Positions 32,396 through 64,000 of a stretch of 64,000 nt of DNA are shown in pieces (position 1 is the stretch's first letter; each line of letters begins with the position of its first letter). The position numbers and the translations under genes are program-made. The notes under the pieces were generated by a model that was given only the letters and a program-made list of their open reading frames with translations, searched no databases and was not told the DNA's origin. This stretch comes from Candidatus Latescibacterota bacterium (GTDB lineage: Bacteria; Latescibacterota; UBA2968; UBA8231), in assembly GCA_965215195.1 (NCBI GenBank), contig CBDCDC010000002.1, positions 2,112,001 through 2,176,000 on the forward strand. The letters are read 5' to 3'.

Positions 32396-33742
32396 TCAGT
32401 CCACCTCGACTAATTGCCGCGCCAGCGATCCCTCGCGCGTCAGGGCGTACACCAAGAGATTCACCCCTAAATTATACACCAACGGCTCCTCGGCACTGGC
32501 CAGAATCGAGTGGTTGATGACGCCATTCGCCGAAGACCAATCCATCAACTCCCGACCGATGCCCGCCCAGAAATCGGCATAGCCGCGCATTGAATACACC
32601 CCCACCAACTGCTCCCCAACTACGATGCCCTCCAAATAGTCCGGGGTACGGGGCGGGTAGTCTTGTCCGTCAACGACAAAGTTCATATCGCGCATCCCCC
32701 GCGGCAGGCTGTTTACATCGTAGAAGCAATGATAGAGCGGATGGGTTAGCTCTAGGCGAGTAAACTTCCAGTCCTTCCATTCTTGATAACCCACCGCTTG
32801 GAAGCTGGCGCGAATGAGGGAACGCACCGCCGGAATATCCAATTCGTCATCGCTGTAATTGGGCCACAAAAAGCGCACAATGTCCGCAAACAGGAAGCCG
32901 CCGCCGGTCAAATACGTCCCTAAATTGGCCGCCTCGCTGTCCGTAAACTCAAAGGGGGTATCGACGGTCAGGAGGACGAAGGGGACTTGCAAAAGCTGCG
33001 GATCGTCGAGCCGAACCGCGTCGCGCACCTCAACGTGAACCTGCGTCGTGGCGGTCATTTTATCGGCCAACCCTTGCAGCATCCGCCGTTCTACCATCTG
33101 GCGCGGCATCTGGTGATACCAGCGCACTTGTATGTTTTCGGCCTGTTCACTGTATTCCGCCCGTTCGATGGAAGGGCTATAAAGGCCGGACATATAAAGG
33201 AAGCCCTTGAGCTTGCGCCGATCTTTGGGATCAACCACCACCATTGCCCGGTGCCGACCCGTATCCAGCGCCTGCACATCCATCAGTTCCAACGCCAAGT
33301 CAATCTCGTCGGCCCCCTGCCGCGTCCCTTCCAGTGCCCCAGCCTGCATCTGCGGACCAATGTGCCGAGCGGGAAAATCCGGCACCGGCAGCACCAGCCG
33401 ATCCGGCAGCGATGCCGACGGCAGCCGCAGAGCCGATGTTTTGAATACCGGCAGGGGGCGCGATGCCGACGGTGCCGGCCGCATCGCCACGACCGGGGCC
33501 GCTTGCAGGGCGGGGCGGCGCACCAACGGGCGCTGTTGCGGTCGTTGCCGACGGGCGAGGGTGCGTGGCAGCGGGCGCTTCTTGGTAAACTTCACCATGA
33601 TCGGCGGTTGCACGGGAAAGTGCGTGACCCGCTCATGGCGCGGAATTCCGAAGATCACCAGCAGATGCAAGGCCAGCGACACCGCCAAGCAGCTTTGCAG
33701 CTTTCTATTGCTTCGGAATGGGACTTTCCACGGTCGTTTCAT
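32396..33742 (-). CDS. DUF4159-domain protein with TonB-like N-terminal anchor, copy 1
   Basis: TM SLALH, Pro/Arg linker, [46 protein letters not shown]. Confidence 0.8.
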   Translation of the reverse strand: MKRPWKVPFRSNRKLQSCLAVSLALHLLVIFGIPRHERVTHFPVQPPIMVKFTKKRPLPRTLARRQRPQQRPLVRRPALQAAPVVAMRPAPSASRPLPVFKTSALRLPSASLPDRLVLPVPDFPARHIGPQMQAGALEGTRQGADEIDLALELMDVQALDTGRHRAMVVVDPKDRRKLKGFLYMSGLYSPSIERAEYSEQAENIQVRWYHQMPRQMVERRMLQGLADKMTATTQVHVEVRDAVRLDDPQLLQVPFVLLTVDTPFEFTDSEAANLGTYLTGGGFLFADIVRFLWPNYSDDELDIPAVRSLIRASFQAVGYQEWKDWKFTRLELTHPLYHCFYDVNSLPRGMRDMNFVVDGQDYPPRTPDYLEGIVVGEQLVGVYSMRGYADFWAGIGRELMDWSSANGVINHSILASAEEPLVYNLGVNLLVYALTREGSLARQLVEVD

Positions 33743-33793
33743 CGGCTCACGTCCCTTCGCAAGGCAGGATTAAACCGGCGTAAATCCAGTATA

Positions 33794-34080
33794 ATGGATG
33801 CTTGGGCGGTCCCATGCCGTCTTATCCTCGTTTGCGTCAAATAGCTCAACGCAATGGCCTCTTAGAAGCGGTCCTAAGTACGCGACCCTTACTTTGAGTA
33901 CGCATTTTCTGCTGTGTCCGATGGGTCCGGGATCGAGGGCAAGATGCCCTCGCACCCAAGCCTCTGCTGTTTCCGAGGTGTCTAGGATCGAGGGCGTCCC
34001 GCCCTCGCACCCAAGCCTCTGGGGCCACAGAGGACGGTTTGGCACACCTCTTCACCGCGCCTGGTGAAGCAGACAACTCC
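33794..34080. repeat. Array spacer: conserved ~80-bp block plus REP/MITE-like unit
   Basis: atggatgcttgggcggtcccatgcc...gaagcggtcct followed by aagtacgcgacccttactttgagtacg...gagggcgtcccgccctcg...gcagacaactcc; recurs at 55083, 57427 and 59257. Confidence 0.85.
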
Positions 34081-36210
34081 TTACGGCAGCTTCGTCGTCT
34101 TTTTCGCTTCCACCCGCCCATCCACTTCGACCTGATAGACGTACACCCCAGCGGCCACATCCTTGCCCGTCGCGTCGCGGCCATCCCACACGAACCGATG
34201 ACTGCCCGCCTGAAGCGGCCCCTGCCACAACTGGCGCACCCGACGACCCAACACGTCGTACACCGCCAGCGACACCTCTGCTGCGTCCTTTGCCAAGTCA
34301 AGGGGCAGCACCACGGCCGGATTGAACGGATTGGGATAGCTGTCGCCGAGCCGATGTTGCACGGGTCGCGCTATCGCTGGCGTCATCACCGCCGTCGCCT
34401 GCTCGGCCAGCGAACTCTTGAGCACATGTACCCCACCCAAGATCGGATCTAACACGACCAAATCGAGGTCGCCGTCCCCATCCATATCCCCGGACAGCAC
34501 GGTGGTCGCACTGCCCTCCAGCCGATGCCGCTCCCCGGCTTGGGTAGGATTGACACGCCCACCCCATTCGACAAAGACCCCAAAGCCCGAAGCGCGGTCT
34601 CCGCCGATAAACACCCAGTCGTCCACCCCATCGGCGTTGAGGTCGCGCACCAGCATCGGCGAGCGCAGAAACAGCCGATCATCATACAGCACTGCCGCTT
34701 CGAGGCGGTCGCCGGTCCCCTTTCTCTGCAAGACGATCCCCTTGCTCCCTTCTATTAGATCGGAGGTGAACTCGGTGAGGAAATCCACCTGTCCATCGCC
34801 ATCAAAATCGCCCACCCCTAACAGCCGCTTCCCTTCGTCGAATTCAAAGGGCTCGCCGCGTGGAAGCTCCTCGCCCAAGGCCCCCACAATCCACGTGTTC
34901 ACCCGCCCGGCGATCGGTACCCACAACACATCTAGTACTCTATCGCCGGTAAAGTCGCCGATATGAGCGGGCGCATGGTTTTGGGACATCCCCACCTCCT
35001 CGGAAGTCCACACGTCCTGCTCTACATCCCAGACTTCTAACGTGCTTCCTTCAAACGTAACATCCCGTACAAATAGTTCGCTCCGGCCGTCACCATCCCA
35101 ATCCGCTGCATCCGCGATCCATCGGTCCTCGATCTGCACGAGCACCTCGACTTGGAGTTCCGGCCCGATAGACCACACTTCGGTCACCTGCCCACTGTTG
35201 CTTTGAGATATCGCGATTTCGTCTTGCCCATCGCCGGTTAAATCAGCCCCCATCGCCTCTAAGACCACCCCGGCGGTGGTCGTCCGACCCGTTGCCGCAT
35301 CGGTACTAGTCTCCCCGGCGGCCGTTACTGCTTCTATGCGCCTCAATTCCAAGGCCCCCTGCCCGTCATTGAGGGCCATCAGCCAGCCCGCTATAGACCC
35401 CCACACCTCCCTTTTTTCCTGGTGCTCATAGAGAGCGAACAGGTCTAAGTCGCCATCGCCCTCCAAGTCCGTCAACACGCCAGCCCCTCTAATCTCCGCC
35501 CCTATGCCCGGGGCAATCGGATAGAACACCGGCCGCGCAAAAAGCCCCTCATCAAAGCGAAAGTACTCCACCTGCGGCGGGGACAGTTCCCCCTCTAATA
35601 ACTCCTCCACGCCGGTCAACTCGATCCAATCAACCTCAAACCACGCCACCACATCGGATGCCGGCGGCTCTTGCTCTGTATCCAGTAGAAAAATGAGTTG
35701 AATATCTTTTAACAGGCCGTCCCATATCTTCTCGTCGTGACCCGCCAAGGAGATCGTTACTTCCTGCCACTGGGTGGTATAGGTTGTAGCTTGTGGAAGA
35801 ATGCCAAACCGGCTTCCAGACGGCGGGTCTTCGGGATCCCAACCGGAAGACCGGGCGTTGTGCTCGTTGGTCCACTCCATTGAAACATTACCCTCCGTAG
35901 GGCGATGGTGGACGGTGCGGCAGCGGATGCGGACGTGGTCGAACAGAGCCGAATCGTACCCGATGGTCGAAGAAATCAATTCGACACTCGGCTTGGGATA
36001 ATGACTTTTGACGACCGAGGGTGCGACCGTGATCCGCCACACGCCGTCTTCGACCACACTTGGGAACAGGTGCAATTCGCGCTTCCCACCCCATATAAGC
36101 GCTTCTTTGGCAGACCACCCTTGCGTCGTCCCATCGTCGAAATCCCACTTGATCGCCTCGGCGGGGACGCTCCACAGCACAAGCCATACAACAACGGCAA
36201 ATCGCAACAT
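34081..36210 (-). CDS. Secreted FG-GAP repeat protein with FlgD-Ig/T9SS-type C-terminal domain, paralog 1
   Basis: Signal peptide [16 protein letters not shown], repeated DxDGDGxxD motifs, YPNPFNP...VWDGRD...AAGVY...KKTTKLP. Confidence 0.88.
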   Translation of the reverse strand: MLRFAVVVWLVLWSVPAEAIKWDFDDGTTQGWSAKEALIWGGKRELHLFPSVVEDGVWRITVAPSVVKSHYPKPSVELISSTIGYDSALFDHVRIRCRTVHHRPTEGNVSMEWTNEHNARSSGWDPEDPPSGSRFGILPQATTYTTQWQEVTISLAGHDEKIWDGLLKDIQLIFLLDTEQEPPASDVVAWFEVDWIELTGVEELLEGELSPPQVEYFRFDEGLFARPVFYPIAPGIGAEIRGAGVLTDLEGDGDLDLFALYEHQEKREVWGSIAGWLMALNDGQGALELRRIEAVTAAGETSTDAATGRTTTAGVVLEAMGADLTGDGQDEIAISQSNSGQVTEVWSIGPELQVEVLVQIEDRWIADAADWDGDGRSELFVRDVTFEGSTLEVWDVEQDVWTSEEVGMSQNHAPAHIGDFTGDRVLDVLWVPIAGRVNTWIVGALGEELPRGEPFEFDEGKRLLGVGDFDGDGQVDFLTEFTSDLIEGSKGIVLQRKGTGDRLEAAVLYDDRLFLRSPMLVRDLNADGVDDWVFIGGDRASGFGVFVEWGGRVNPTQAGERHRLEGSATTVLSGDMDGDGDLDLVVLDPILGGVHVLKSSLAEQATAVMTPAIARPVQHRLGDSYPNPFNPAVVLPLDLAKDAAEVSLAVYDVLGRRVRQLWQGPLQAGSHRFVWDGRDATGKDVAAGVYVYQVEVDGRVEAKKTTKLP

Positions 36211-36222
36211 GATACCACCTCC

Positions 36223-36276
36223 TCACGGCAGCTTCGTCGTCTTTTTCGCTTCCACCTGTCCGTCGATTTCGACCTG
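36223..36276 (-). pseudogene. Orphan tip of the constant C-terminal domain
   Basis: [17 protein letters not shown] joined directly to the spacer repeat. Confidence 0.75.
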
Positions 36277-36500
36277 AAGTACGCGACCCTTACTTTGAGT
36301 ACGCATTTTCTGCTGTGTCCGATGTGTCCAGGATCGAGGGCGTCCCGCCCTCAACGCCCCTCGCACCCAAGCCTCTGCGGTTTCCGATGGGTCCGGGATC
36401 GAGGGCGTCCCGCCCTCGCCCCCAAGCCTCTGGGGCCGCAGAGGACAGCACGAGGAGTTTGTCACGCCTCTTCACCGCGCCTGGTGTAGCAGACAACTCC
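36277..36500. repeat. REP/MITE-like array spacer
   Basis: aagtacgcgacccttactttgagtacg...gcagacaactcc. Confidence 0.8.
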
Positions 36501-38729
36501 TCACGGCAGCTTCGTCGTCTTTTTCGCTTCCACCCGCCCATCAATTTCAACCTGATAGACATACACCCCGGCGGCCACCGCCTTGCCCCCCTCGTCGCGC
36601 CCATCCCACACAAACCGATGGCTACCCGCCGCCAGCGACCCGTCCCATACCTGCCGCACCCGACGACCCAACACATCGTACACCGTCAGCGACACTCCCG
36701 CCGCGTCCGTCGCCAAATCGAGGGGCAGCACCACCGCTGGATTAAACGGATTGGGATAGCTGTCGCCCAACCGATGTTGCACCGGCCGCGCTGCCGCTGG
36801 CGTCTGCACCGCTGTCGCCTGACCGCCCAGCGAACTCTTGAGTACATGCACCCCGCCCAAGATCGGATCTAACACCACCAAATCGAGATCGCCGTCGTTA
36901 TCCATATCCCCGCAGAGCACGTCTCGCCCTGTGCCCTCCAGCCGATGCCGCTCCCCGGCTTGAGTAGGATTGACACGCCCGCCCCATTCGACAAACACCC
37001 CAAAGCCCGAAGCGCGATCTCCGCCGATAAATACCCAGTCGTCCACCCCATCGGCATTCAGATCGCGCACCACCACCGGCGAGCGTCGCAACAGCCGATC
37101 ATCATACAGCACCGCCGCTTCGAGGCGGTCCCCGGCTCCCTTTCTCTGCAAAACCAGCCCCTTGCTACCTTCTATATCGACTGTGAATTCGGTGAAGAAA
37201 TCCACCTGCCCATCGCCATCAAAGGGTGTGAACAAGGATGTGAACTCGGTGAGGAAATCCACCTGTCCATCGCCATCAAAATCGCCCACCCCTAACGGCC
37301 TCACCCCTTCATCGAATTCAAAGATCTCGCCGCTCGGAAACGCCGCGGTCTCGCTTGTCTGCAACGCCTCGCTCAAGTCCCCCACAATCCACGTGCTCGC
37401 CCGCCCGGGGATCAGCGCCCACAACGCGTTGAGGACCCCATCGCCGGTAAAGTCGCCGATATAAGGGGGGGTATAGTCTTGGACCGCGGCTACCTCCTCG
37501 GACGTCCACACGCCCTGTTCTACATCCCACACCGCTAACGTGCTAAAGAACGTCACCGTACCCGCGATCGCCTCCTCTAAAGTGCCTTCATACGTAGTCC
37601 TCCCGACAAACAACTCAACCCTCCCGTCGCCATCCCAATCGGCCACACTACGGACCAATCGGTCGATCTGCACCAGCACCTCGACTTGGAGGTCCGGCCC
37701 AATAGACCACACTTCGGTCCCGTGCCCCCAGTTGCTTTGAGATATCGCGATTTCGTCTTGCCCATCGCCGGTCAAATCCGCACCAAGCACTCTTGAGACC
37801 ACTCCACCTTCAGCTATTTCCTCTATAACAGGCCCCCGTTCCAAGACCCCGCGCCCGTCATTGACGGCCATCAGCCAGCCCGCTTTAGTCTGAGGAGGCC
37901 CATACTTATCCTCTGTTTGCGTTTCCCACAGGCCAAACAGGTCTAAGTCGCCATCGCCATCCAAGTCCGTCAACACACCGCCCCCCCTATCCCCTAGATA
38001 CCTACCTCCAATAGGTGCTTCCCCTAGGCCCGGCGCAATCGGATAGAACACCGGCGGCGCAAACAGGCCGGTCCCCGCAAAGCGAAAGTAGGACGCTACC
38101 GGCGGCGGCGGCCGTTCCCCCTGGAGCATCTCTTCCACGCCGGTCAACTCGATCCAGTCGATCTCAAACGCCTCAACCACCCCAGGCTTGGTATCCGAAT
38201 CAAAATCCAGTATAAAACTGAGCTTGATATTTTTTAACAGGCCCTCCCATCCCCTGTGCCCATCCAACGAGACCACCACTTCCTGCCACTCGGTCGTATA
38301 GACGATTTGTTGGATGAGGTCGCGGTCTTCTTCGGCTGCTTCTAGCTCAGAACCGACATCAAAAAAACCAAAACCTGAAGAGCTTTTCCACTCGATCCAA
38401 AAAGTACCCTCCGTAGGGCGGTCATGGACGCTGCGGAACCGGACGCGGACTTGGTCGAACAGAGCCGAATCGTACCCGATGGTCGAAGAAACCACTTCGA
38501 CACCCGGACGGGAGGCGTACAAACTATTGGTGACGGCGGGATCGACCCGGATCCGCCACACGCCCTCGTCGACCTCTCCGGGGAACTGGTTAAATTCACG
38601 CGTACCCCCCCATACAAGTGCTTCTTTGGGCGTCCACCCTTGCGTCGTCCCATCGTCGAAATCCCATTTGATCGCCTCGGCGAGGCTGCTCCACAGCATA
38701 ACGCAGATAACAACGGCCAATAGCAACAT
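36501..38729 (-). CDS. Secreted FG-GAP/FlgD-CTD protein, paralog 2
   Basis: Same architecture; internal duplication [11 protein letters not shown]. Confidence 0.88.
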   Translation of the reverse strand: MLLLAVVICVMLWSSLAEAIKWDFDDGTTQGWTPKEALVWGGTREFNQFPGEVDEGVWRIRVDPAVTNSLYASRPGVEVVSSTIGYDSALFDQVRVRFRSVHDRPTEGTFWIEWKSSSGFGFFDVGSELEAAEEDRDLIQQIVYTTEWQEVVVSLDGHRGWEGLLKNIKLSFILDFDSDTKPGVVEAFEIDWIELTGVEEMLQGERPPPPVASYFRFAGTGLFAPPVFYPIAPGLGEAPIGGRYLGDRGGGVLTDLDGDGDLDLFGLWETQTEDKYGPPQTKAGWLMAVNDGRGVLERGPVIEEIAEGGVVSRVLGADLTGDGQDEIAISQSNWGHGTEVWSIGPDLQVEVLVQIDRLVRSVADWDGDGRVELFVGRTTYEGTLEEAIAGTVTFFSTLAVWDVEQGVWTSEEVAAVQDYTPPYIGDFTGDGVLNALWALIPGRASTWIVGDLSEALQTSETAAFPSGEIFEFDEGVRPLGVGDFDGDGQVDFLTEFTSLFTPFDGDGQVDFFTEFTVDIEGSKGLVLQRKGAGDRLEAAVLYDDRLLRRSPVVVRDLNADGVDDWVFIGGDRASGFGVFVEWGGRVNPTQAGERHRLEGTGRDVLCGDMDNDGDLDLVVLDPILGGVHVLKSSLGGQATAVQTPAAARPVQHRLGDSYPNPFNPAVVLPLDLATDAAGVSLTVYDVLGRRVRQVWDGSLAAGSHRFVWDGRDEGGKAVAAGVYVYQVEIDGRVEAKKTTKLP

Positions 38730-38741: not shown

Positions 38742-39509
38742 TTACGGCAGCTTCGTCGTCTTTTTCGCTTGCACCTGTCCACCTATGTTGACCTTATAGA
38801 CATACACCCCGGCGGCCACGTCTCTGCCCGCCGCGTCGCGCCCATCCCACACAAACCGATGGCTCCCCGCCGCCAGCGGCCCCTGCCACACCTGCCGCAC
38901 CCGACGACCCAACACGTCGTAGAGTGCCAAGTGGACCCGTGCCTCGTCCGTCGCCAACGCAAGGGGAATCACCATCGCCGGATTAAACGGATTGGGATAG
39001 GCATTGCCCAGCCGATGTTGCGCCGGCCGCGCTGCCGCCGACGTCTGCACGGCGGTCGCGGTCGGTTGCTCCGCTTCCGAACAGGGCGTGGAGGAACACG
39101 CGCATTGCCAATAATCAAGGTCACCGTCCGCGTCATAGTAAAAAGTGCAGTACCGGTACGGCTTGGTCGAGTTAGAAGACCTCGCGCAACCACCAAAGTA
39201 GCTGCACTCCGTCTTTGGAGGGGGGCCGAGGAAAGCGCCGGCCTGCTCGGCCTCCGAGCGGGAGATGCAGTGGTACTCAAAGCTGCAGTCAAGGTGCTCT
39301 GTGCGGCACCGGATCGGCGTGTTCTCGTTCCGAGACTCGCATGAAACGTTGTACTCGCAGTCTTCATAAGCACTATCCCCGCACTTGTCGGCTTGGGCTT
39401 CCTTGTCCCCGAGCAGGACCACAAGCCCCGCAAGGGCGATGATAACCCACCCCTGCCGCATTGGGGCCAAGCCACTGGACGAGCCGATAAATTCACGCAA
39501 ACTGTTCAT
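38742..39509 (-). CDS. Secreted Cys-rich protein (two 6-Cys modules) with FlgD-CTD
   Basis: Leader MNSLREFIGSSSGLAPMRQGW...AQA/D, 12 Cys, SSTPCSEA linker, YPNPFNP...KKTTKLP; GGAGGTG SD. Confidence 0.85.
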   Translation of the reverse strand: MNSLREFIGSSSGLAPMRQGWVIIALAGLVVLLGDKEAQADKCGDSAYEDCEYNVSCESRNENTPIRCRTEHLDCSFEYHCISRSEAEQAGAFLGPPPKTECSYFGGCARSSNSTKPYRYCTFYYDADGDLDYWQCACSSTPCSEAEQPTATAVQTSAAARPAQHRLGNAYPNPFNPAMVIPLALATDEARVHLALYDVLGRRVRQVWQGPLAAGSHRFVWDGRDAAGRDVAAGVYVYKVNIGGQVQAKKTTKLP

Positions 39510-50624: not shown

Positions 50625-50637
50625 TGAACTAGCTCCC

Positions 50638-53690: not shown

Positions 53691-53708
53691 ATGCAAGTTC
53701 CGTGCCAA
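53691..53708 (-). promoter_or_regulatory. Sigma-54 (-24/-12) promoter
   Basis: Minus strand TTGGCACGGAACTTGCAT matches TGGCACG-N4-TTGCW exactly. Confidence 0.85.
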
Positions 53709-53830
53709 CAAGCAGGCCACGCACAAAAAAATCCTTTAGGATGCACCTAAAGGATTGAAAAACATGATACTTAAAATTATGGAAAGGGTCTCTCTACGAT
53801 GCGCGGCCTCAGCCATTGGCGCAAGGCAGC

Positions 53831-53886
53831 ATACGATTTTCCGTATTTAATACGATTTTCCGTATCCTCAATACGATTTTCCGTAT
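53831..53886. promoter_or_regulatory. Three copies of the palindromic 16-mer ATACGATTTTCCGTAT (candidate enhancer/UAS)
   Basis: Identical copies at 53831, 53850 and 53871; ATACG-N6-CGTAT dyad; about 120-180 bp upstream of the sigma-54 site. Confidence 0.65.
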
Positions 53887-55323: not shown

Positions 55324-57408
55324 TCACGGCAGCTTCGTCGTCTTTTTCGCTTCCACTCGCCCATCCACTTCGACCCGATAGACATACACCCCGGCGGCCA
55401 CGTCTTTGCCCGCCGCGTCGCGGCCGTCCCACACAAACCGATGATTCCCCGCCCGCAGCGGACCATCCCACACCTGCCGCACCCGACGACCCAACACATC
55501 GTACACCGTCAGCGACACCCCCGCCGCGTCCGTCGCTAAATCAAGAGGGATCACCACCGCCGGATTGAACGGATTGGGATAGCTGTCGCCGAGCCGATGG
55601 CTCACCGGTCGGCCCGCTGCCGCTGGCGTCAGCACCGCGGTCATCTGTTCGCCCACCAGACTCTTGAGCACATGTACGCCGCCCAATACCGAATCCAACA
55701 CCACCAAGTCCAGATCGCCGTCGCCATCGACATCGCCGGAAAGCACCTGTACCCCATCGCCGGCCAAGCGATGGGTCTCTACTTCTTTAGTTGGGTTCGC
55801 ACCTCCGCCCCATTCGATAAACACGCCAAAACCCGAGGCGCGGTCCCCGCCGACAAACGCCCAATCATCTACCCCATCGGCGTCCAAGTCATGCACCATC
55901 ACCGGAGAGCGTAGAAACAGCCGTCCATCATACAGCACCTCCTCTTCTACACCGTCCCCAAGTCGATGGCTCCGCACAACGAGACCCTTGCGATGTTCGG
56001 GGCCTTCGTAGCGCAAGGCCGCCAGCAAATCGACTTGCCCATTGCCATCAAAATCGCCCGTTCGTAAAAAAGTGGCTGAATCGAGGCTCCGGGCGGGCTC
56101 GAAGACCAATAGGGAACCCTCCGTAAATTCACCTCTCAACCGAGACATAACCCATGTGTGGGCTTGGCCGAAGATGGGTGCCCACAGCACGTCCAACTCC
56201 CCATCGCCCGTAAGGTCGCCCACCTGAAAGGGACCATGATCCTCGGGGAGTGCCGCCAACCGCGAAGCAGTCCATACGCCACCCGCTACATCCCAGACTT
56301 CCAAATAGGAGTCGTCTTCAGAAAAAAGTTCGACATCGCCGTCGCCATCCCAATCCACGAGATCCACCATATAGCGATCGCTCATCTGCGCGAGCACCTC
56401 AATCTGGAGGGCTGGCCCCAGAGACCAAACCGCTGGTTTACCATTTATAACCAGCACAATCTCATCGGTCCCATCGCCGGTCAAGTCGCCCGCCTGCACA
56501 TTCAAGGAAGCCAATCCCGTCTCCTCGGTGAGGACGGATTCAAAGGCCCCTTCGCCATCGTTAAGGGCTATGACCCAACCGTCTGTGGACAATCCCTTGG
56601 GCGGGAAATGGTCCCAAACAGCAAAAAGGTCTAAGTCGCCATCGCCATCCAAATCCGTCAAGACGCCGGCCCTGCGGTCTCCTCTAACGAAGGAGTCCCC
56701 TAAACCTAGCACAATGGGATAGAAAACCGGCGGCGCAAAACGTCCAGCACCCTCAAAGTGAAAATACTCAGCTTGAGGAGGTGGCAATTCCCCCTGTAAG
56801 ATCTCTTCCACGCCGGCCAACTCAATCCAGTCGATCTCCAAGCCGCCCACCTTCGCCTCGGCCGGGCGCGGTACATTTATTTCGCCCTGATCCAAGTAAA
56901 AACTCAGCCGAATATCCCTCAACGCACCGTCCCATAGAATCTCATCCTGGTCTGCAATGGAGATTGCTACTTCTTGCCACTCGGTCGTGAAAACAAAATT
57001 CCGTGGACCCGGGATCCGAAAGCGTCGTTTAGTAGGAAACTCAGGATCGTGCCCCGGCAGCATGAGGTTGTGTTCATTGGTCCATTTGAAGTTAAAAAAA
57101 CCTAACGTGGGGATGTGATGGATCGTGCGGAACCGAATCTGCACCCGGTCGAAAAGGGCCGATTCGTAGCCTATCGTAGGAGAAATCACTTCGACACTCG
57201 GATTATCGTCATCCGAACGAAACGCCTCAATTGCCCACACGTCGTCTGCAACCACCCCAGACAATAGGTGAAACGAATGACGGCCGCCGGATGAAACGTC
57301 CTTTTTGGCGGACCACCCTTGGGTCGTCTCGCCATCGAAATCCCACCGAATCGCCTCAGTGGAGCTACCCCATAGCATCACGCATATAAAAACGAGGGGC
57401 TTCAACAT
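55324..57408 (-). CDS. Secreted FG-GAP/FlgD-CTD protein, paralog 7 (most divergent)
   Basis: TEA/IRWDFDGETTQGW, FG-GAP motifs, CTD KKTTKLP. Confidence 0.88.
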   Translation of the reverse strand: MLKPLVFICVMLWGSSTEAIRWDFDGETTQGWSAKKDVSSGGRHSFHLLSGVVADDVWAIEAFRSDDDNPSVEVISPTIGYESALFDRVQIRFRTIHHIPTLGFFNFKWTNEHNLMLPGHDPEFPTKRRFRIPGPRNFVFTTEWQEVAISIADQDEILWDGALRDIRLSFYLDQGEINVPRPAEAKVGGLEIDWIELAGVEEILQGELPPPQAEYFHFEGAGRFAPPVFYPIVLGLGDSFVRGDRRAGVLTDLDGDGDLDLFAVWDHFPPKGLSTDGWVIALNDGEGAFESVLTEETGLASLNVQAGDLTGDGTDEIVLVINGKPAVWSLGPALQIEVLAQMSDRYMVDLVDWDGDGDVELFSEDDSYLEVWDVAGGVWTASRLAALPEDHGPFQVGDLTGDGELDVLWAPIFGQAHTWVMSRLRGEFTEGSLLVFEPARSLDSATFLRTGDFDGNGQVDLLAALRYEGPEHRKGLVVRSHRLGDGVEEEVLYDGRLFLRSPVMVHDLDADGVDDWAFVGGDRASGFGVFIEWGGGANPTKEVETHRLAGDGVQVLSGDVDGDGDLDLVVLDSVLGGVHVLKSLVGEQMTAVLTPAAAGRPVSHRLGDSYPNPFNPAVVIPLDLATDAAGVSLTVYDVLGRRVRQVWDGPLRAGNHRFVWDGRDAAGKDVAAGVYVYRVEVDGRVEAKKTTKLP

Positions 57409-57854: not shown

Positions 57855-57858
57855 TCCC

Positions 57859-59205
57859 TCACTCCGCATCAACTAATTGCCGTGCCAGCGATCCCTCCCG
57901 CGTCAACGCATACACCACGACATTGACGCCCAAATTATACACCAACGGCTCCTCGGCACTGAAGAGAGACGAGTGGTTGATTACGTTATTCGCCAAAGAC
58001 CAATCCATCAACTCCCGACCGATGCCCGCCCAGAAATCGGCATAGCCGCGCATTGAATACACCCCCACCAACTGCTCCCCAACTACGATGCCCTCCAAAT
58101 AGTCCGGGGTACGGGGCGGGTAGTCTTGTCCGTCAACGACAAAGTTCATATCGCGCATCCCCCGCGGCAGACTGTTTACATCGTAGAAGCAATGATAGAG
58201 CGGATGGGTTAGCTCTAGGCGAGTAAACTTCCAGTCCTTCCATTCTTGATAGCCCACCGCTTGGAAGCTGGCGCGAATGAGGGAACGCACCGCCGGAATA
58301 TCCAATTCGTCATCGCTGTAATTGGGCCACAAAAAGCGCACAATGTCCGCAAACAGGAAGCCGCCGCCGGTCAAATACGTCCCTAAATTGGCCGCCTCGC
58401 TGTCCGTAAACTCAAAGGGGGTATCGGCGGTCAGGAGGACGAAGGGGACTTGCAAAAGCTGCGGATCGTCGAGCCGAACCGCGTCGCGCACCTCAACGTG
58501 AACCTGCGTTGTGGCGACCATCTTGTCGGCCAACCCTTGCAGCATCCGCCGTTCCACCAAGCGGCGCGGCATCTGGTGATACCAGCGCACTTGTCTGTTT
58601 TCGGCCTGTTCACTGTATTCAGCCCGTTCGATGGAAGGGCTGTAAATGCCGGACATATAGAGAAAGCCCTTGAGCTTGCGCCGGTCTTGGGGATCAACGA
58701 CCACCATCGCCCGGTGCTGACCCGTGTCCATCGCCTGCACATCCATCAGTTCCAACGCCAAGTCAATCTCGTCGGCCCCCTGCCGCACTCCTTCCAATGC
58801 CCCAACCCGTAGGGACGGACCAATGTGCCGAGCGGGGAAGTCCGGCACCGGCAGCACCAGCCGTGCCGGCAACGACGCCGTCGGCAGCCGGAGCGCCGAG
58901 GTCTGGAACAGGGGCAACGGCCGCGTCGCCGACGGTGCCGGCCGCATGGCCACCACCGGGGCCGCTTGCAGGGCGGAGCGGCGCACTAAGGGACGCTGTT
59001 GGGGCCTCTGCCGGCGGGCGAGGGTGCGTGGCAGCGGGCGCTTCTTGGTAAACTTCACCATGATCGGCGGTTGCACGGGAAAGTGAGTAGCCCGCTCATG
59101 GCGCGGAATTCCGAAGATCACCAGCAGATGCAAAGCCAGCGACAGCGCCAAGCAGCTTTGCAGCTTTCTATTTTTTCTGAATGGGACTTTCCACGGTCGT
59201 TTCAT
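57859..59205 (-). CDS. DUF4159-domain protein with TonB-like anchor, copy 3
   Basis: Paralog; the DUF4159 half is almost identical to copy 1. Confidence 0.8.
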   Translation of the reverse strand: MKRPWKVPFRKNRKLQSCLALSLALHLLVIFGIPRHERATHFPVQPPIMVKFTKKRPLPRTLARRQRPQQRPLVRRSALQAAPVVAMRPAPSATRPLPLFQTSALRLPTASLPARLVLPVPDFPARHIGPSLRVGALEGVRQGADEIDLALELMDVQAMDTGQHRAMVVVDPQDRRKLKGFLYMSGIYSPSIERAEYSEQAENRQVRWYHQMPRRLVERRMLQGLADKMVATTQVHVEVRDAVRLDDPQLLQVPFVLLTADTPFEFTDSEAANLGTYLTGGGFLFADIVRFLWPNYSDDELDIPAVRSLIRASFQAVGYQEWKDWKFTRLELTHPLYHCFYDVNSLPRGMRDMNFVVDGQDYPPRTPDYLEGIVVGEQLVGVYSMRGYADFWAGIGRELMDWSLANNVINHSSLFSAEEPLVYNLGVNVVVYALTREGSLARQLVDAE

Positions 59206-59684: not shown

Positions 59685-59688
59685 TCCC

Positions 59689-61026
59689 TCACTCCGCATC
59701 GACTAGTTGCCGTGCCAGTGATCCCTCGCGCGTCAGGGCATACACCAAGAGATTCACCCCCAAATCATACACCAACGGCTCTTCGGCACTAGCGAAAGAC
59801 GGGCTGTTCATTGCGTTCTCCGCCAAAGACCAATCCAGCAACTCCTTACCTTTTCCCCCAAAAAAATCGGCGTAGCCCTTCATCGAGTACACCCCGACCA
59901 ACTGCTCCCCAACTACGATGCCCTCCAAATAGTCCGGGGTGCGCGGCGGGTATTCTCCAACGGTAAAGTGCATATCGCGCATCCCGCGCGGCAGGCTATT
60001 TACATCGTAGAAGCAATGATAGAGCGGATGGGTTAGCCCCAAGCGGGTAAACTGCCAGTCCTTCCATTCTTGATAACCCACCGCTTGGAAGCTGGCGCGA
60101 ATGAGGGAACGCACCGCCGGAATGTCTAATTCATCGTCGCTGTATTTGGGTCGCAAAAAGCGCACAATCTCGGCAAACAGGAAGCCGCCGCTGGTCAAAT
60201 ACCCCCCTAAATTGGCTGCCTCGCTGTCCGTAAACTCAAAGGGGGTAGCGAAGGTCATGAGGACGAAGGGGACTTGCAAAAGCTGGGGATCGTCGAGCCG
60301 GACCGCGTCGCGCACTTCGACGTGAACCTGCGTCTTGGCGACCATCTTATCGGCCAACCCGTGCAGCATCCGCCGTTCTATCACTTGGCGCGGCATCTCA
60401 TAATAGAAGCGCCCTTGTGAGGAGTTGGTCTGTTCGGACTCAGCCCGTTCAATAGAAGGGCTATAAACACCGGACATATAGAGGAAGCCCTTGAGCTTGC
60501 GCCGGTCTTGGGGATCGACCACCACCATCGCCCGGTGCCGACCCGTGTCCATCGCCTGCACATCCAGCAACTCCAAGCCCAAGTCAATCTCATCGGCCCC
60601 TTGCCGCGTCCCTTCCAACGCTCCAGCCCGCAGTTGCGGACCAATGTGCCGCGCCGGGAAATCCGGCACCGGCAGCACCAGCCGATTCGGCAGCGATGCC
60701 GACGGCAGCCGAAGCGCCGATGTTTTGAACACCGGCAGGGGACGCGACGCCGACGGTGCCGGCCGCATGGCCACGACCGGGGCGGCTTGCAGGGCGGCGC
60801 GGCGCACCAACGGGCGCTCGCGGGGCCGTTGCCGCCGGCTGAGGGTGCGCGGCAGCGGCCGCTTCTTGGTAAACTTCACCATGATCGGCGGTTGCACGGG
60901 AAAGTGCGTGACCCGCTCATGGCGTGGGAGTCCGAAGATCACCAGCAGATGCAAAGCCAGCGACAACGCCAAGCAGCTTTGCAGCTTTCTATTGCTTCGG
61001 AACGGGACTTTCCACGGCCGTTTCAT
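59689..61026 (-). CDS. DUF4159-domain protein with TonB-like anchor, copy 4
   Basis: Paralog; ATGA overlap with GT2. Confidence 0.8.
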   Translation of the reverse strand: MKRPWKVPFRSNRKLQSCLALSLALHLLVIFGLPRHERVTHFPVQPPIMVKFTKKRPLPRTLSRRQRPRERPLVRRAALQAAPVVAMRPAPSASRPLPVFKTSALRLPSASLPNRLVLPVPDFPARHIGPQLRAGALEGTRQGADEIDLGLELLDVQAMDTGRHRAMVVVDPQDRRKLKGFLYMSGVYSPSIERAESEQTNSSQGRFYYEMPRQVIERRMLHGLADKMVAKTQVHVEVRDAVRLDDPQLLQVPFVLMTFATPFEFTDSEAANLGGYLTSGGFLFAEIVRFLRPKYSDDELDIPAVRSLIRASFQAVGYQEWKDWQFTRLGLTHPLYHCFYDVNSLPRGMRDMHFTVGEYPPRTPDYLEGIVVGEQLVGVYSMKGYADFFGGKGKELLDWSLAENAMNSPSFASAEEPLVYDLGVNLLVYALTREGSLARQLVDAE

Positions 61027-62075
61027 CGGCTCCCGTCCTTTCGCAAAGGATGGAGATCGAGCATTAACGTACGCTCCGCCATTTCGCCGCTCGATATGGT
61101 CTGATGCGTTTCGTGAAACGCCATCAGGCTAGGGAGGCGCATCTCCTCTGGAATTAGGCGATCCGGCCATAGAGCAGCGAGCCAAAATTCGATCAGGCAT
61201 AGCTTGGGATCCTCGTTCTTCTCCACCATGTGGGCTATAGATCTATGCCGTTTTTGCGATTCTGCGAACGCATTTTGGGGGCTGAAAAAGTCGTGGTGAT
61301 GATACAGGTGATAGCTCTGCGCCTTGGCTGCAAAGCGCATGTTGCAGCCATTCCGCATGAGGCGATAGGCCAAATCCCATCCCTCAGAGTGGGGCATCTC
61401 TTCGTCAAACCCACCGACTTCCTCAAGGGCGACGCGCGGGGCCGAAGCATTGTGTGGATAAAAACTGATCCAACCGATCGGCGAATCGGGCACGTTGTCA
61501 AAGAGTACTTGTACTTGGTCTTGCATTAATTTTATCTCCGGGAACGGATATATCCCTTCTCGGGCTAATGGGGTGATCGCAGCGAAATCGGACTGTATCA
61601 TCGCCTCGGTCACCCGAAATTTTTCTGGGTACATACGTATAATATGAGCAACCGATGCCGGAGCGTCCTCCCAAGGAAGGCCACTATGCGGGTCTTGGAC
61701 ATATTCCAAGCGAGGTAAGCAATAGTGGAATCCGCTCGTTACGCCGTTGTAGCGCTGAAATAGGTGCCAATGTTGGGCTAACCAATCGGGACCCGGTAGC
61801 GCGTCGCCATCTAAAAAGGCGACTACCTCTCCCCGCGCTTCCGCGATACCGATATTCCGCGCTCGACAGCGTCCTACATTGGTACGCAAGGGAATGACTT
61901 TTATGGGCATGTGCTCATACTCACGCAGAAAATCCCCTGTTCCGTCCGTGCTGCCATCGTCCACCACGATAACCTCAAACTGGCCTTCGGGGAGTGTTTG
62001 AACGGCCAAGCCGCTTAAAACAAGCCGCAACCGATCGCGCTGATTGTGTGCGGCAATGACGACAGAAATATCCAT
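61023..62075 (-). CDS. Glycosyltransferase family 2, copy 2
   Basis: Close paralog of 49575-50624. Confidence 0.9.
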   Translation of the reverse strand: MDISVVIAAHNQRDRLRLVLSGLAVQTLPEGQFEVIVVDDGSTDGTGDFLREYEHMPIKVIPLRTNVGRCRARNIGIAEARGEVVAFLDGDALPGPDWLAQHWHLFQRYNGVTSGFHYCLPRLEYVQDPHSGLPWEDAPASVAHIIRMYPEKFRVTEAMIQSDFAAITPLAREGIYPFPEIKLMQDQVQVLFDNVPDSPIGWISFYPHNASAPRVALEEVGGFDEEMPHSEGWDLAYRLMRNGCNMRFAAKAQSYHLYHHHDFFSPQNAFAESQKRHRSIAHMVEKNEDPKLCLIEFWLAALWPDRLIPEEMRLPSLMAFHETHQTISSGEMAERTLMLDLHPLRKDGSR

Positions 62076-62088
62076 TTCGCTAGCTCCC

Positions 62089-64000
62089 TTATATACATTC
62101 AAAGACCAAGCGGCTCTCTTCCCTCAGAGAATCCGGCCAATGCATACGAGACAAGCCATTATCCGTTTCTTCATATACAATGGCTTGTGGCACTTCTTTG
62201 GCCGCAGTGTTTGAGCATACGATGTGAAAGCAGTCCAAATGACCAAAGAAAAAGTCAAAATAGGGCTCGCTATTCTCCAAGACCGTATGGCGCAACGCCT
62301 CACTTTGCACATTGGCCTCCGTTAGTGCTGGCGTACCAGTGCTGATACCGTGAAATTCCACGGGAATCCATCCGAGATCTGAGATGAAAATCTCAGCCCA
62401 TGTGTGCCCAAATACCACTTCATTATACATTCGGTTCTCGTATATACTCGGCCCCAGCGGATTGACCGCTATGGCTCCGGTCTGCTCACGGGCGGGTATT
62501 TTTTGCAGGCGACAAAGGGCAATAAAAGCACGAGCCAACGTAATACAATGTCCGCCGTCGTCCGTCAGTGCTTTTAGGGTGCTACACCGATAGCATTGGC
62601 AGCTATCTTTGGTTTTCTTGAAATGCTTGTTTCTGGCTAAATAGTAGTATAACGAACGAGCTTTTTCTACGTCGCTCGATCCTCGGTCTATGCCCGCATC
62701 CTCCCAACAACGGCGGACGAGTGAGTGTTCTACCAAGGATTCATCGACGGTAGTATAGCACTCGAATTGTTCGGGTGTGAGCACCTCTGTTGCTCGACCC
62801 ATCGCTCTCGCATAAACCGTCAATTCGCACACATAAGAAAACGTATATGCCTCATCGGAGCTAAAATCACAAACCGCAGGATAGCCATAGAAAAAACCCG
62901 CGTGTGGCAAAAAATAGCTCTGTATTTCCGCCGGGCTGCAAGACAGCAGCTTTATATCCTTCTGAAAGTCAGTGGATGTTGGGTACGGCAGAAATATCCG
63001 CGCATGGTGTGTTGTATCCTCGGCCGCAGACAGAGTGAAGGTATAAGTCAGCCGCAATCGCTGGCTTTCCGTAGCGGGACGAAGCGCACCATTTTTTTTA
63101 TTAATGAAGAACGAACGCATTTCCTCACGCGCCTCGTAATCACACTCAAAAAAGCGAGCGTCGTTGTCGTACAGCCAGTTCCACGAATCGAAACGATCGT
63201 ACCAGATGCCGTCTTGTCTCACTTCATGCGGCATCTGGTGCTTTCGCCCGTTTTCAAGCATCTCTTCAACCTGCTCGTCGCTGAGCACCGTACTCAACGA
63301 CAACTGCCGGGCAAAATCGCGGTGGCTCATCTCGTACTGCGGATCGAGCTGGTCTTCTTCAGCGCGATTCATCCAGTACCCATCAACTATATCCGCGACG
63401 CGATTCGCGCCCTGCCATTCCCGTATATCACCGGCGAAGGCGCGGCATCGTCTGGAGAACATCGCATAGTGATTTAGCAGTCCCTCGACACTTTGCACGA
63501 GAGACGTCGATCGGGTGAAGTCTCGGTAGCTCAACTTGAGACCCAGTCCCAAGGCTTGCAGGCGGTCGATGAAATGCTCTTGCGTACCATTCGTGGGCAG
63601 CCCGATAAGCGGTATACCCTTGAACAGAGCTTGGTAAAAGAAATCGTGATCTCCGCCGCCGGCAAAGACGGCCGCTTGGGAGGCGGCCTGCGGCAAAAAA
63701 TTAGGATCGACGAGCTCGCCGCACTCTATTAGGTCAATACGCACTCCAACAGGTGGAACCACCCACTGCCGAATCCCTTTCATCCCCAGCTTTTGCAGGG
63801 CCTCTTGAATGGAAGGCCAATCGGCTCCCAGCGTTCTGAGATCCCAGTACACCCCCTCCCGCTCCACCTCGCCTTGCGCCTCTGCATCAAGCCCCTCAAG
63901 CAGCGGTCCGACAAAGGAGTAGTTGGCAGGCATCTCCGGTCTCAGTGGATGAACCGCTGGAATATCGCAGAGCAGATACATCTCCCCAAATGTCGTCCCA
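62089..64000 (-). CDS. GT-B (UDP-glycosyltransferase-like) plus transglutaminase-like fusion, probably 5'-truncated by the window edge
   Basis: N-part ANYSFVGPL...ALFKGIPLIGLP...QEH...LQALGLG; C-part GHCITLARAFIALCRLQKIPAR, GHTWAEIF..LGWIPVE; frame is open to the window end. Confidence 0.75.
   Translation of the reverse strand, partial: GTTFGEMYLLCDIPAVHPLRPEMPANYSFVGPLLEGLDAEAQGEVEREGVYWDLRTLGADWPSIQEALQKLGMKGIRQWVVPPVGVRIDLIECGELVDPNFLPQAASQAAVFAGGGDHDFFYQALFKGIPLIGLPTNGTQEHFIDRLQALGLGLKLSYRDFTRSTSLVQSVEGLLNHYAMFSRRCRAFAGDIREWQGANRVADIVDGYWMNRAEEDQLDPQYEMSHRDFARQLSLSTVLSDEQVEEMLENGRKHQMPHEVRQDGIWYDRFDSWNWLYDNDARFFECDYEAREEMRSFFINKKNGALRPATESQRLRLTYTFTLSAAEDTTHHARIFLPYPTSTDFQKDIKLLSCSPAEIQSYFLPHAGFFYGYPAVCDFSSDEAYTFSYVCELTVYARAMGRATEVLTPEQFECYTTVDESLVEHSLVRRCWEDAGIDRGSSDVEKARSLYYYLARNKHFKKTKDSCQCYRCSTLKALTDDGGHCITLARAFIALCRLQKIPAREQTGAIAVNPLGPSIYENRMYNEVVFGHTWAEIFISDLGWIPVEFHGISTGTPALTEANVQSEALRHTVLENSEPYFDFFFGHLDCFHIVCSNTAAKEVPQAIVYEETDNGLSRMHWPDSLREESRLVFECI

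Follow-up and report, generated by a model that had tools for sequence, protein, structure and literature searches.

In excerpts from PMC11285876, the C-terminal domain (CTD) carried by cargo of type IX secretion (T9SS) is described as a 3+4 immunoglobulin (Ig)-like sandwich with a conserved lysine in its C-terminal strand, which reads KLIKK in Tannerella. The type A cargo of Bacteroidota joins a signal peptide to a TIGR04183 domain of ∼80–100 amino acids (aa) at the extreme C-terminus, ending in a lysine-rich last strand; one tag is attached to unrelated passengers, and the cargo genes occur as tandem paralogues. Type B CTD cargo genes come with a dedicated downstream partner of the PorP/SprF kind. 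Likenesses to type A in each of these respects, and to type B in one, are found in a stretch of DNA from a Candidatus Latescibacterota bacterium (assembly GCA_965215195.1, contig CBDCDC010000002.1, positions 2,112,001 to 2,176,000), analyzed here over its full length of 64,000 nucleotides (the window). Positions 32396–64000 of the window hold an array in which genes for FG-GAP propellers and cysteine-rich proteins sharing one C-terminal tag are interspersed with genes for DUF4159 proteins and glycosyltransferases. This array is probably a stretch, shuffled by recombination, of an envelope gene system that is specific to its lineage, has T9SS-type tagged cargo and is present in genomes titled Latescibacterota.

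All large open reading frames (ORFs) of the array except one transposase lie on the minus strand, as an earlier reading made from the letters alone (the sequence-only reading) had stated and as the ORF listing, Pfam and NCBIfam bear out. The array contains seven FG-GAP genes, two tagged and one short Cys-rich gene, one WD40 gene, four DUF4159 genes, two GT2 genes, one gene fusing a GT-B to a transglutaminase-like domain (GT-B/TGase) together with its remnant, three tag stubs, one activator stub and one plus-strand IS5 insertion sequence (Table 1). This inventory agrees with that reading for the FG-GAP, WD40, DUF4159, GT2 and GT-B/TGase families. Its count of three Cys-rich genes also stands, but its view of the third as a truncated copy does not, this being a complete 95-aa gene of a conserved short family.

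The evidence for T9SS-type cargo lies in a C-terminal domain of ∼100 aa with a KKTTKLP tail, which is common to the seven FG-GAP and the two longer Cys-rich proteins. A motif scan of the window found 12 exact KKTTKLP-stop sequences on the minus strand and none on the plus strand, nine in full genes and three in stubs; together with tblastn, the scan confirms the 12 complete or partial tails that had been counted from the letters. TIGR04183 ('T9SS type A sorting domain', cutoff 23 bits) was reached by eight of the nine tagged proteins with 24.2–30.6 bits, the protein at 39528–40334 scoring 22.8, which supports the likeness to T9SS-type sorting domains that had been proposed. The C-terminal (CTD) part of the NCBIfam PorU model was matched by all nine (E 2e-8 to 1.9e-6), and relatives carry the NCBI label 'T9SS type A sorting domain-containing protein'. 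The extreme C-terminus is lysine-rich, reading KKTTKLP in all nine proteins and RKM[VI]K[LI]E (for example RKMVKLE) in a divergent cluster type; if these residues are placed in the last strand, as we assume, both tails would fit the conserved-lysine description excerpted from PMC11285876. By inspection, the tagged proteins begin with a Sec signal peptide (for example MLRFAVVVWLVLWSVPAEA/IKW in the propellers), and the Cys-rich proteins have a hydrophobic stretch and a small-x-small motif at the N-terminus. Mean non-synonymous divergence (dN) is 0.28 in the passengers versus 0.066 in the tag, bearing out the idea of variable passengers on a constant tag, and synonymous divergence (dS) of the tag (0.28) is about a third of that of the N-terminal domain (0.78). 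By their hidden Markov model (HMM) matches the tagged proteins may be filed, with the caveats given below, as T9SS-type cargo, a kind that is already known and that databases name as such.

The same gene families are found together in other genomes. A scan of a genome collection gave 28 related loci on 16 contigs of 15 genomes, 13 titled Latescibacterota or Latescibacteria and two Gemmatimonadetes or Gemmatimonadota; 12 of the contigs are chromosome-scale (4.2–7.3 Mb), and 11 of these 12 are titled 'chromosome'. One DUF4159 protein of the window (copy 1) is 100% identical to P0001 on a contig of 4,862,218 bp, which holds further paralogues outside the window. FG-GAP (92 hits on the gene strand, none opposite) and the tail (108 and three, respectively) are present in all 28 loci, GT2 in 13 (15 hits) and GT-B/TGase in 12 (12 hits), the last two again with none on the opposite strand. 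FG-GAP genes and the tag stand co-directionally beside DUF4159 in every locus, so that the families do co-occur beyond this contig, and in most loci DUF4159 directly follows the last tag-bearing gene. The order WD40 then Cys-rich gene also recurs in four loci (L012, L015, L016 and L018).

Six loci (L002, L003, L007, L019, L022 and L024) share a longer order: cargo genes; a 196-aa protein with a weak FMN_bind match; a 387-aa membrane protein with a Peptidase_A24 match; two ResA/TlpA-like thioredoxin-fold proteins; a tetratricopeptide repeat (TPR) protein; GT-B/TGase; GT2; DUF4159; a 105-aa protein; an F5/8-type-C protein with a tail of the same kind; an 876-aa protein with a signal peptide; and a YbgF/BamD-like TPR protein. 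The A24-like protein scores 31.1 bits against a Pfam cutoff of 26.5 and has weak matches to FlaK (archaeal) and to an A24 C-terminal model. A second version of this core with the same content, at 30–50% identity, occupies six further loci (L010, L011, L014, L017, L025 and L027). The window thus shows one part of a larger conserved cluster, whose upstream genes should lie just beyond position 64000; the sequence-only reading had missed this cluster, including the A24-type peptidase, the two thioredoxin-like proteins and the TPR protein. The gene for the 876-aa protein is very well conserved and lies downstream of DUF4159 and the F5/8-type-C gene. Homologues of the copy at L002 14933–17563 are 90–95% identical in L003, L005, L006, L015, L016, L019 and L025; they have a signal peptide, Asp-rich repeats and a weak match to the SlpA_C β-barrel (E 0.0016), and the gene is absent from the window. 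The protein may be an outer-membrane component of the system.

Several observations weigh against type IX export of the tagged proteins and against the wider system proposed around them. The Pfam model PF18962 (Por_Secre_tail, cutoff 27 bits) was passed by none of the nine tagged proteins, the best score being 21.4; PF13860 (FlgD_ig) was passed by all nine (40.7–49.6 bits), and the closest solved sequences in the PDB are Ig domains of flagellar FlgD, not T9SS cargo. T9SS machinery was seen neither in the window nor among 41 ORFs that represent the unassigned ones of the 28 loci. Latescibacterota are absent from the phyla of the Fibrobacteres–Chlorobi–Bacteroidetes (FCB) group named as possible T9SS holders in the excerpts from PMC11285876, and the lineage was not discussed for T9SS in the literature searched. 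That DUF4159, GT2 and the TGase fusion act on the cargo would be a conjecture drawn only from conserved synteny and from the overlap of the GT2 and DUF4159 genes. The A24, thioredoxin and TPR genes are all absent from the window, which also holds no intact activator gene, only a remnant of 35–73 aa. Lastly, the five stubs (three of the tag, one of TGase and one of an activator) and the insertion sequence may mean that part of the array is poorly expressed or decaying. The Pfam and PDB results, the machinery genes not seen nearby and the place of DUF4159 directly after the last tag-bearing gene would all suit a tag that is an FlgD-like Ig domain put to a use other than type IX export, for instance as an anchor on the envelope or on the DUF4159 protein, with propellers that are periplasmic or otherwise exported. 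We regard this as unlikely, since TIGR04183 is at or above its cutoff in eight of nine proteins and the CTD region of PorU is matched in all nine, since the domain closes the protein and has a lysine-rich end, as in known cargo, and since one tag on unrelated passengers (propeller, Cys-rich and F5/8-type-C) is the behavior of a sorting signal. An envelope system with T9SS-type cargo is accordingly the reading that we prefer, and its present gene order can be traced in the DNA.

Self-comparison of the window DNA revealed a repeat unit in which the final 190 bp of the tail are joined by ∼300 bp of spacer to DUF4159 (32395–34268 versus 57858–59683, 90% identity), a tandem duplication of 1.83 kb (57427–59227 versus 59257–61048) and two copies of a block comprising the TGase end, GT2 and DUF4159 (48227–50806 versus 59687–62260, 87% over 2.59 kb), a unit whose recurrence had been noticed from the letters. 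Both 62-aa tail stubs start directly after a DUF4159 stop codon, pointing to old crossovers between the DUF4159 end and mid-tail sequence. The IS5 element, with terminal inverted repeats GGAAyCTCTGATyAAGT located by eye at ∼53961 and ∼55078, lies between a tail-plus-spacer segment and a set of palindromes, where related loci have DUF4159 and an activator gene. In the tree, all four window copies of DUF4159 group in a single clade (support 0.997), and this clade and the dS of the tail suggest that tag and DUF4159 may have evolved in concert. The repeat unit, the tandem duplication and the stubs of tag, TGase and regulator support the earlier proposal that the array was expanded and diversified by recombination.

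The many tandem paralogues, and a source that is probably a metagenome-type assembly, raise the question of whether the array is an assembly artefact in which strain variants of one or two genes are stacked. Such a chimera, which had been named as a way in which the first interpretation could fail, is highly improbable because no repeat pair exceeds 95% identity, because a window protein lies on the 4.86-Mb contig and because related chromosomes carry similar arrays. The copies differ by 5–48%, the window propellers group with different orthologues of other genomes, and like arrays are found in 11 other chromosome-level genomes, one of them with loci that jointly cover ∼47 kb and are separated by a ∼4-kb gap.

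Table 1. Features of the array and of its candidate control elements, from the right-hand edge of the window leftward.
Feature	Positions	Strand	Evidence or remark
GT-B (UDPGT-like)/transglutaminase-like fusion	62089..64000	-	Transglut_core 50.5 bits, weak UDPGT; open at window edge
GT2 glycosyltransferase copy 2	61023..62102	-	Pfam Glycos_transf_2 97.3 bits; 89% identical to copy 1
DUF4159 copy 4	59689..61026	-	PF13709 59.5 bits; membrane helix, basic/Pro-rich stretch, domain
Sorting-domain stub, last 62 aa, without start codon	59499..59684	-	tblastn and motif scan
DUF4159 copy 3	57859..59205	-	Pfam 69.4 bits; inside the 1.83-kb tandem duplication
Sorting-domain stub, last 62 aa	57669..57854	-	tblastn and motif scan
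FG-GAP + sorting domain copy 7, most divergent	55324..57408	-	FG-GAP_3 77.5, FlgD_ig 44.3, TIGR04183 27.1 bits
IS5-family insertion sequence	~53961..55078 (transposase 54033-54935)	+	NF033581 277.9 bits (cutoff 140)
Three tandem palindromes ATACGGAAAATCGTAT, starts 19 and 21 bp apart	53831..53886	-	Candidate activator sites
Terminator-like hairpin and T-run, just upstream of promoter	53730..53756	-	Conserved in alignment of upstream DNA
Sigma-54-type promoter TGGCACGGAACTTGC	53693..53707	-	Sole exact match in window
Short Cys-rich protein, 95 aa, without sorting domain	53260..53547 (ORF within 53260-53622)	-	44-aa leader and hypervariable 8-Cys core
Strong hairpin, 13-bp stem, candidate attenuator	53060..53090	-	Between short Cys gene and propeller gene
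FG-GAP + sorting domain copy 6	50878..52983	-	Pfam, NCBIfam, BLAST
GT-B/TGase remnant, last 56 aa	50641..50805	-	tblastn, 82% identity
GT2 glycosyltransferase copy 1	49575..50651	-	Pfam 97.5 bits
DUF4159 copy 2	48229..49578	-	Pfam 70.0 bits
Sigma-54 activator remnant, 35-73 aa	48026..48238	-	tblastn with 11 activator ORFs of related loci
FG-GAP + sorting domain copy 5	45808..47994	-	Pfam, NCBIfam, BLAST
FG-GAP + sorting domain copy 4	43624..45795	-	Pfam, NCBIfam, BLAST
FG-GAP + sorting domain copy 3	41434..43611	-	Pfam, NCBIfam, BLAST
WD40 propeller, hydrophobic N-terminus, without sorting domain	40347..41375 (ORF 40347-41609)	-	Pfam WD40 237 bits
Cys-rich + sorting domain, leader as in short form	39528..40334	-	Pfam, NCBIfam
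Cys-rich + sorting domain	38742..39509	-	Pfam, NCBIfam
FG-GAP + sorting domain copy 2	36501..38729	-	Pfam, NCBIfam, BLAST
Degenerate sorting-domain stub, only last ~17 aa in frame, tail intact	36226..36363	-	tblastn and motif scan
FG-GAP + sorting domain copy 1	34081..36210	-	Pfam, NCBIfam, BLAST
DUF4159 copy 1, end of array	32396..33742	-	Pfam 71.2 bits

The FG-GAP proteins are 696–742 aa long and 52–81% identical among the seven copies (all-against-all BLAST), and all seven score above the cutoff of PF13517 (51–77.5 bits). Motifs of the form D-x-D/N/T-x-D-G, which resemble calcium sites, number seven and are evenly spaced in four of the propellers; the others have five to eight. A propeller profile matched CRTAC1, PL11 lyases and integrin alpha-V in the PDB. 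The N-terminal domain had no usable Pfam match at E up to 1, the best of the Pfam trials being CBM_17_28 (E 0.086). The dN/dS ratio (ω) of individual segments was 0.2–0.45, rising to ∼1.0 in a single 30-codon window, and positive selection was not found on the seven propellers of the array. In a FastTree phylogeny rooted at the midpoint, the seven copies are scattered among orthologues of other genomes: only two are sisters of each other, two have a single foreign sister (support 0.94–0.99), and copy 7 is sister to L007_18834. These results mark the propeller passengers as old paralogues that purifying selection has maintained. Their relatives make up at least 708 clusters at 90% identity. In one related locus (L018 4859–7069), a fragment of the Cys-protein leader is fused to the start of a propeller ORF.

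The DUF4159 copies are 82–93% identical (BLAST), and all four pass the PF13709 cutoff of 25.9 bits with 59.5–71.2 bits, as expected of members of that family; the model is likewise matched by all 55 sequences of our alignment (54 relatives and a window copy). A profile of these 55 sequences found a single solved relative in the PDB, 4i66 (E 4e-16), the uncharacterised protein Hoch_4089. To our knowledge no function is known for the family. The proteins of the array consist of an N-terminal membrane helix, a basic and proline-rich stretch and the DUF4159 domain. They differ from other members as a subfamily in which a histidine within the helix is conserved (53 of 55) and is followed by a conserved basic/Pro motif, and which is present in several copies beside T9SS-type cargo. 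Judged by eye, the N-terminus, with its small-x3-His helix and basic/Pro stretch, presumably recalls TonB/TolA anchors; a TonB-like reading found no HMM support, Pfam searches with the first 217 residues being unusable at E up to 1. The full architecture is found in 606 representative clusters at E up to 1e-3, and DUF4159 relatives form at least 306 clusters at 90% identity, with no match in a plasmid collection searched in protein mode. As with the PorP/SprF-like partner of type B cargo, a conserved gene directly follows the cargo genes and has been multiplied with them; unlike that partner, DUF4159 has one membrane helix, a basic/Pro stretch and a 4i66-like domain rather than an outer-membrane barrel, and the tag that it accompanies is of type A.

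In both copies the GT2 stop codon overlaps the DUF4159 start by 4 nt, and the two genes are predicted to be translationally coupled. Against NCBIfam, GT2 matched general GT2 models, the best being EpsD and MftF, both far below cutoff, and no SunS-type model was among the matches. The GT-B/TGase fusion matched GT1 glycosyltransferases in the PDB by sequence from chain position ∼197. Its copy at the window edge is 84% identical to P0425, an 824-aa paralogue on the same contig, relative to which it is ∼188 N-terminal residues short because the window ends there. In 17 GT-B/TGase sequences, down to 38% identity, the motifs GHC, GHTW and W-x-P-x-E do not vary, nor do the Cys, His and acidic residues in them. 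The fusion is narrow in distribution: of its 49 clusters, all but two (47) stand at ≥72% identity.

The two long Cys-rich proteins (255 and 268 aa, 59% identical) share their leader with the short Cys-rich family and add the sorting tail. The short family comprises 23 genes of 79–109 aa, 22 of them in related loci. A propeller gene lies within 500 nt downstream of 20 of the 23; the three exceptions involve a 1.4-kb insertion, a late-starting match in the next propeller and a broken copy. The insertion, at L007 14995–16400, lies between a short Cys gene and the propeller gene belonging to it and is a trace of rearrangement in a relative. In the window, such a peptide gene accompanies only one of the seven propeller genes. 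The 44-aa leader hardly varies (MxxLREFFTSSSGLAPxRQGLGLGWVISALTGVAILLGAKEAxA). A related leader occurs in the divergent cluster type, and R-x-G-L-x-L-G-W before the hydrophobic stretch is kept in both leader types; small-x-small follows the hydrophobic stretch in 14 of 14 leaders, as expected for signal peptidase I. The core contains eight Cys in 10 of 14 type-1 sequences and is otherwise hypervariable, and neither profile nor sequence searches found a Pfam or PDB relative for it. Over 78 pairs, leader dN was 0.15 and dS 0.91 (dN/dS ∼0.16, purifying), while core dN was ∼1.0 with dS saturated in 45 pairs. In the four least-diverged pairs core ω was 1.09–1.97, from counts (such as 34.2 non-synonymous versus 4.8 synonymous) too small to serve as a formal test. 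Two copies in a single genome (L026) have a leader dS of 0.045 and cores with dN ∼1.0 and saturated dS, as if cores had been exchanged while the leader stayed constant.

Aligned with one another, the upstream DNA segments of 13 short genes share a common order of three palindromes, an AT-rich stretch, a hairpin with a T-run, TGGCACGGAACTTGC, the known sigma-54 −24/−12 consensus, and a leader of ∼150 nt. TGGCAC-N5-TTGC has one exact match in the window, ∼146 nt before the short Cys gene; with one mismatch allowed there are four matches versus 5.5 expected, which is not above chance. The related loci contain 19 exact matches in 13 of the 28, and all 20, including that of the window, are in gene orientation: 11 before a short Cys gene, four before the A24-like gene of the divergent core, four before a propeller gene and one before DUF4159. 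A sigma-70 consensus scan remained at chance level. The palindrome ATACGGAAAATCGTAT has three exact matches, a number reached in none of 100 shuffles, and its arms vary between genomes yet stay palindromic. Scanning the loci for GAFTGA-type motifs gave 14 matches, 11 of them in ORFs of 1045–1083 aa; these 11 activator ORFs, in nine related loci, are co-directional and lie just upstream of the promoters. Pfam searches with two of them found Reg_prop repeats, Y_Y_Y, Sigma54_activat and HTH_8. Exact −24/−12 elements, three palindromes ∼125–180 bp upstream and an adjacent Sigma54_activat/HTH_8 activator in relatives are features of regulons governed by sigma-54 and enhancer-binding proteins; the sensor, a Reg_prop/Y_Y_Y double propeller, and the reduction of the activator to a stub in the window set the array apart from them. 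Double-propeller sensors of this type are known in hybrid two-component systems of Bacteroides. By eye, a hairpin like that at 53060–53090, with CCGG and CTAG stem variants, occurs in most of 13 intergenic regions folded, and would lower read-through from the short gene into the propeller gene. The promoter, the three palindromes, the hairpins and the activator stub had all been overlooked at first.

Two observations concern DNA related to this control region. The ∼150-nt leader (53548–53692, minus strand) is conserved, also in 10 loci, with two predicted stem-loops, one of them ∼15–25 nt before the ribosome-binding site; covariation is weak (compensatory change in four of 22 pairs), and a structured RNA is not established. 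At 16296–16460 on the plus strand is a 165-bp inverted copy, 78% identical, of the promoter block of the short Cys gene, with a one-mismatch sigma-54 element inside it (16406–16420, plus strand). It is followed by an ORF (16535–16957, plus strand) of 140 aa with a hydrophobic N-terminus and no Pfam match; the DNA around it (16–19 kb) is low in G+C (0.51) and holds only fragmentary ORFs, one with an fn3 match.

The constant leaders and hypervariable cores suggest another explanation, in which the main products are the small Cys-rich peptides and the cluster serves the maturation and export of disulfide-rich, possibly glycosylated peptides that are made by ribosomes and then modified (RiPPs), loosely like glycocins. 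GT2 and GT-B would glycosylate the peptides, the TGase-like (papain-fold) domain or the A24 protein would cut the leader, the thioredoxins would set the disulfides, and the propellers would be carriers, receptors or immunity partners. Excerpts from PMC6405829 describe glycocin clusters (sublancin, pallidocin) with a precursor made of a leader and a Cys-rich core, the GT2-type SunS, thioredoxin-like proteins and a peptidase/ABC exporter. The array resembles them in its purifying leader before a mostly eight-Cys, hypervariable core, in cores that appear swappable behind near-identical leaders, and in the conservation of GT2, two ResA/TlpA-like proteins and a Cys-His-acid TGase domain in the core cluster. 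A sigma-54 promoter before and a strong hairpin after the short gene suggest that peptide transcript is made in excess, and MacA/MacB-like exporter genes recur near some arrays. We nevertheless consider a RiPP system an improbable main function. The leader looks like an ordinary Sec signal peptide and not a double-glycine leader, neither the window nor the core cluster has a C39 peptidase/ABC exporter, the core has eight Cys versus the five of glycocins, and no SunS-type model is among the NCBIfam matches of GT2. The glycosyltransferases, by eye, seem to have no signal peptides and the peptides look Sec-exported, so that the two would meet only before export, and most of the propeller genes in the window are without a peptide gene. 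The clusters also add propeller cargo, DUF4159 and the GT-B/TGase fusion to the glycocin gene set, and the lineage is presumably Gram-negative.

The A24-like protein raises the further prospect that the short proteins are pilin-like subunits, cut by this prepilin-type peptidase and assembled into a surface fiber with the propellers as tip or accessory adhesins. It passes its Pfam cutoff, R-x-G-L-x-L-G-W stands just before the hydrophobic stretch in both leader types, and many pilin genes are likewise preceded by a sigma-54 promoter and activator sites and followed by a terminator. This explanation is very unlikely to be correct: no class III site of the G/F..E type is seen by eye, the leaders have, after their hydrophobic stretch, a conserved small-x-small site of the signal-peptidase-I type, the core cluster and flanks yielded neither an assembly ATPase nor a platform protein or secretin, and the A24 gene is absent from the window.

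The remaining observations concern gene boundaries and surroundings. The WD40 gene most likely starts at Met79 of its ORF (position 41375), which gives a hydrophobic N-terminus; codons 1–78 of the ORF read the neighboring C-terminal domain in another frame. A defense-island reading was dropped, PADLOC having no system model for nine of 10 proteins and matching the WD40 protein with a repeat model only. Rfam gave no match in the window at gathering scores. The G+C content of the array (0.52–0.60) overlaps that of the flank (0.51–0.64), the right-hand half of the array tending lower. Abutting the array end, at 30189–32266 on the plus strand, are genes for a DUF2089 helix-turn-helix (HTH) protein, a SHOCT-like/DUF4097 'toastrack' protein and another SHOCT-like ORF, where related loci continue instead with the 105-aa, F5/8-type-C and 876-aa genes. 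The left 32 kb holds ordinary metabolic genes, including those for a creatininase, a GH32 hydrolase, a SASA-type esterase and two PhyH-family dioxygenases (8704–9579, 11980–12855, 7920–8654, 10412–12106 and 19424–20698). Near the arrays of some relatives, genes for a MacA-like adaptor and a MacB-like ATPase and permease lie on the opposite strand (L013 12653–16981, L023 4671–5918 and others), in clusters of six, three and three members. In L005 (15731–18282), a HerA-like ATPase and an adenine DNA methyltransferase beside the DUF4159 locus are probably an unrelated defense or restriction island.

For the preferred reading, an envelope system with T9SS-type tagged cargo, the following outline can be proposed. 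The order seen in related loci suggests an ancestral cassette in which a propeller-sensor activator of sigma-54 was succeeded by a terminator, three sites for the activator, a sigma-54 promoter, a short protein made of conserved leader and hypervariable 8-Cys core, an attenuating hairpin, a propeller cargo gene and a membrane-anchored DUF4159 protein. Cassettes would be switched on through sigma-54 by ligand-sensing activators, and the short peptides would be made in excess and oxidised in the periplasm. The secreted or surface products would be the seven FG-GAP propellers and the two Cys-rich modular proteins, each with a signal peptide and the constant tag; Sec would take them through the inner membrane, and a type-IX-like route that reads the tag would take them through the outer one. 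From their synteny, GT-B/TGase, GT2, DUF4159, the A24 peptidase, the thioredoxins and the TPR protein of the core would probably be concerned with processing or modification of the Cys-rich products or the envelope, and all of these except the TPR protein may serve maturation or anchoring. As the DNA comparison shows, the present order and its stubs arose through unequal crossing-over and gene conversion among the tag and DUF4159 sequences, through deletions and through the insertion of one IS5. Much more tentatively, we put forward, as a possibility that we rate well short of probable, that these parts form a new, cassette-built envelope system of Latescibacterota. Each cassette would pair a ligand-sensing activator and a hypervariable disulfide-rich peptide with a matching surface propeller exported by its T9SS-type tag, and a shared core of A24 peptidase, two thioredoxins, GT2, GT-B/TGase and a TonB-like anchored DUF4159 protein would mature them; the result, in this same doubtful proposal, would be a diversified peptide/propeller repertoire of ligand–receptor or toxin–carrier type, kept varied by recombination behind constant leaders and tags.

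A literature search found no description of a system with this gene set, in line with the statement of the sequence-only reading that none was known, subscription journals being outside its reach. DUF4159 appeared only in the Pfam database paper, and nothing was found on type IX secretion, T9SS or sigma-54 in Latescibacter; among papers on cysteine-rich proteins of Latescibacter none was related, as far as titles and the beginnings of abstracts indicate. In the available excerpts, PMC12993501, on metagenome-assembled genomes of sponge-associated Latescibacterota, mentions WD40 and TPR proteins and does not mention secretion, VCBS or transglutaminase, and PMC13747020 merely names FG-GAP as a domain of one tested protein. 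Unlike T9SS type A cargo as known, the cargo of the array is tied to DUF4159, GT2, GT-B/TGase, sigma-54 cassettes and Cys-rich peptide genes, and no report of such a link was found. What is undescribed is therefore the association of tagged cargo with DUF4159, GT2 and GT-B/TGase, with sigma-54 cassettes whose activator has a propeller sensor, and with leader-bearing, hypervariable Cys peptides. There is a fair chance that this accessory system is something new. Taken together, the first interpretation holds for the constant tag, its T9SS-likeness, recombination and co-occurrence, and fails in the third Cys-rich ORF and in missing the control elements and the wider cluster.

Two modes of evolution proceed side by side in the array: apparent concerted evolution of DUF4159 and the tag, and maintenance of the passengers as old paralogues. 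Should the tag prove to be a true type-IX signal, export of the T9SS type would extend to a phylum for which the literature searched does not mention it. DUF4159 gains a context that can be tested, always beside tagged cargo and, as predicted from the gene overlap, translationally coupled to a glycosyltransferase. The peptides with a leader and a hypervariable 8-Cys core, encoded beside propellers and predicted to be under sigma-54 control, follow the pattern of toxin, ligand and antigen families that face other organisms. Some of the related records come from lineages described as sponge-associated, and these genes could therefore bear on interaction with a host or with neighbors.

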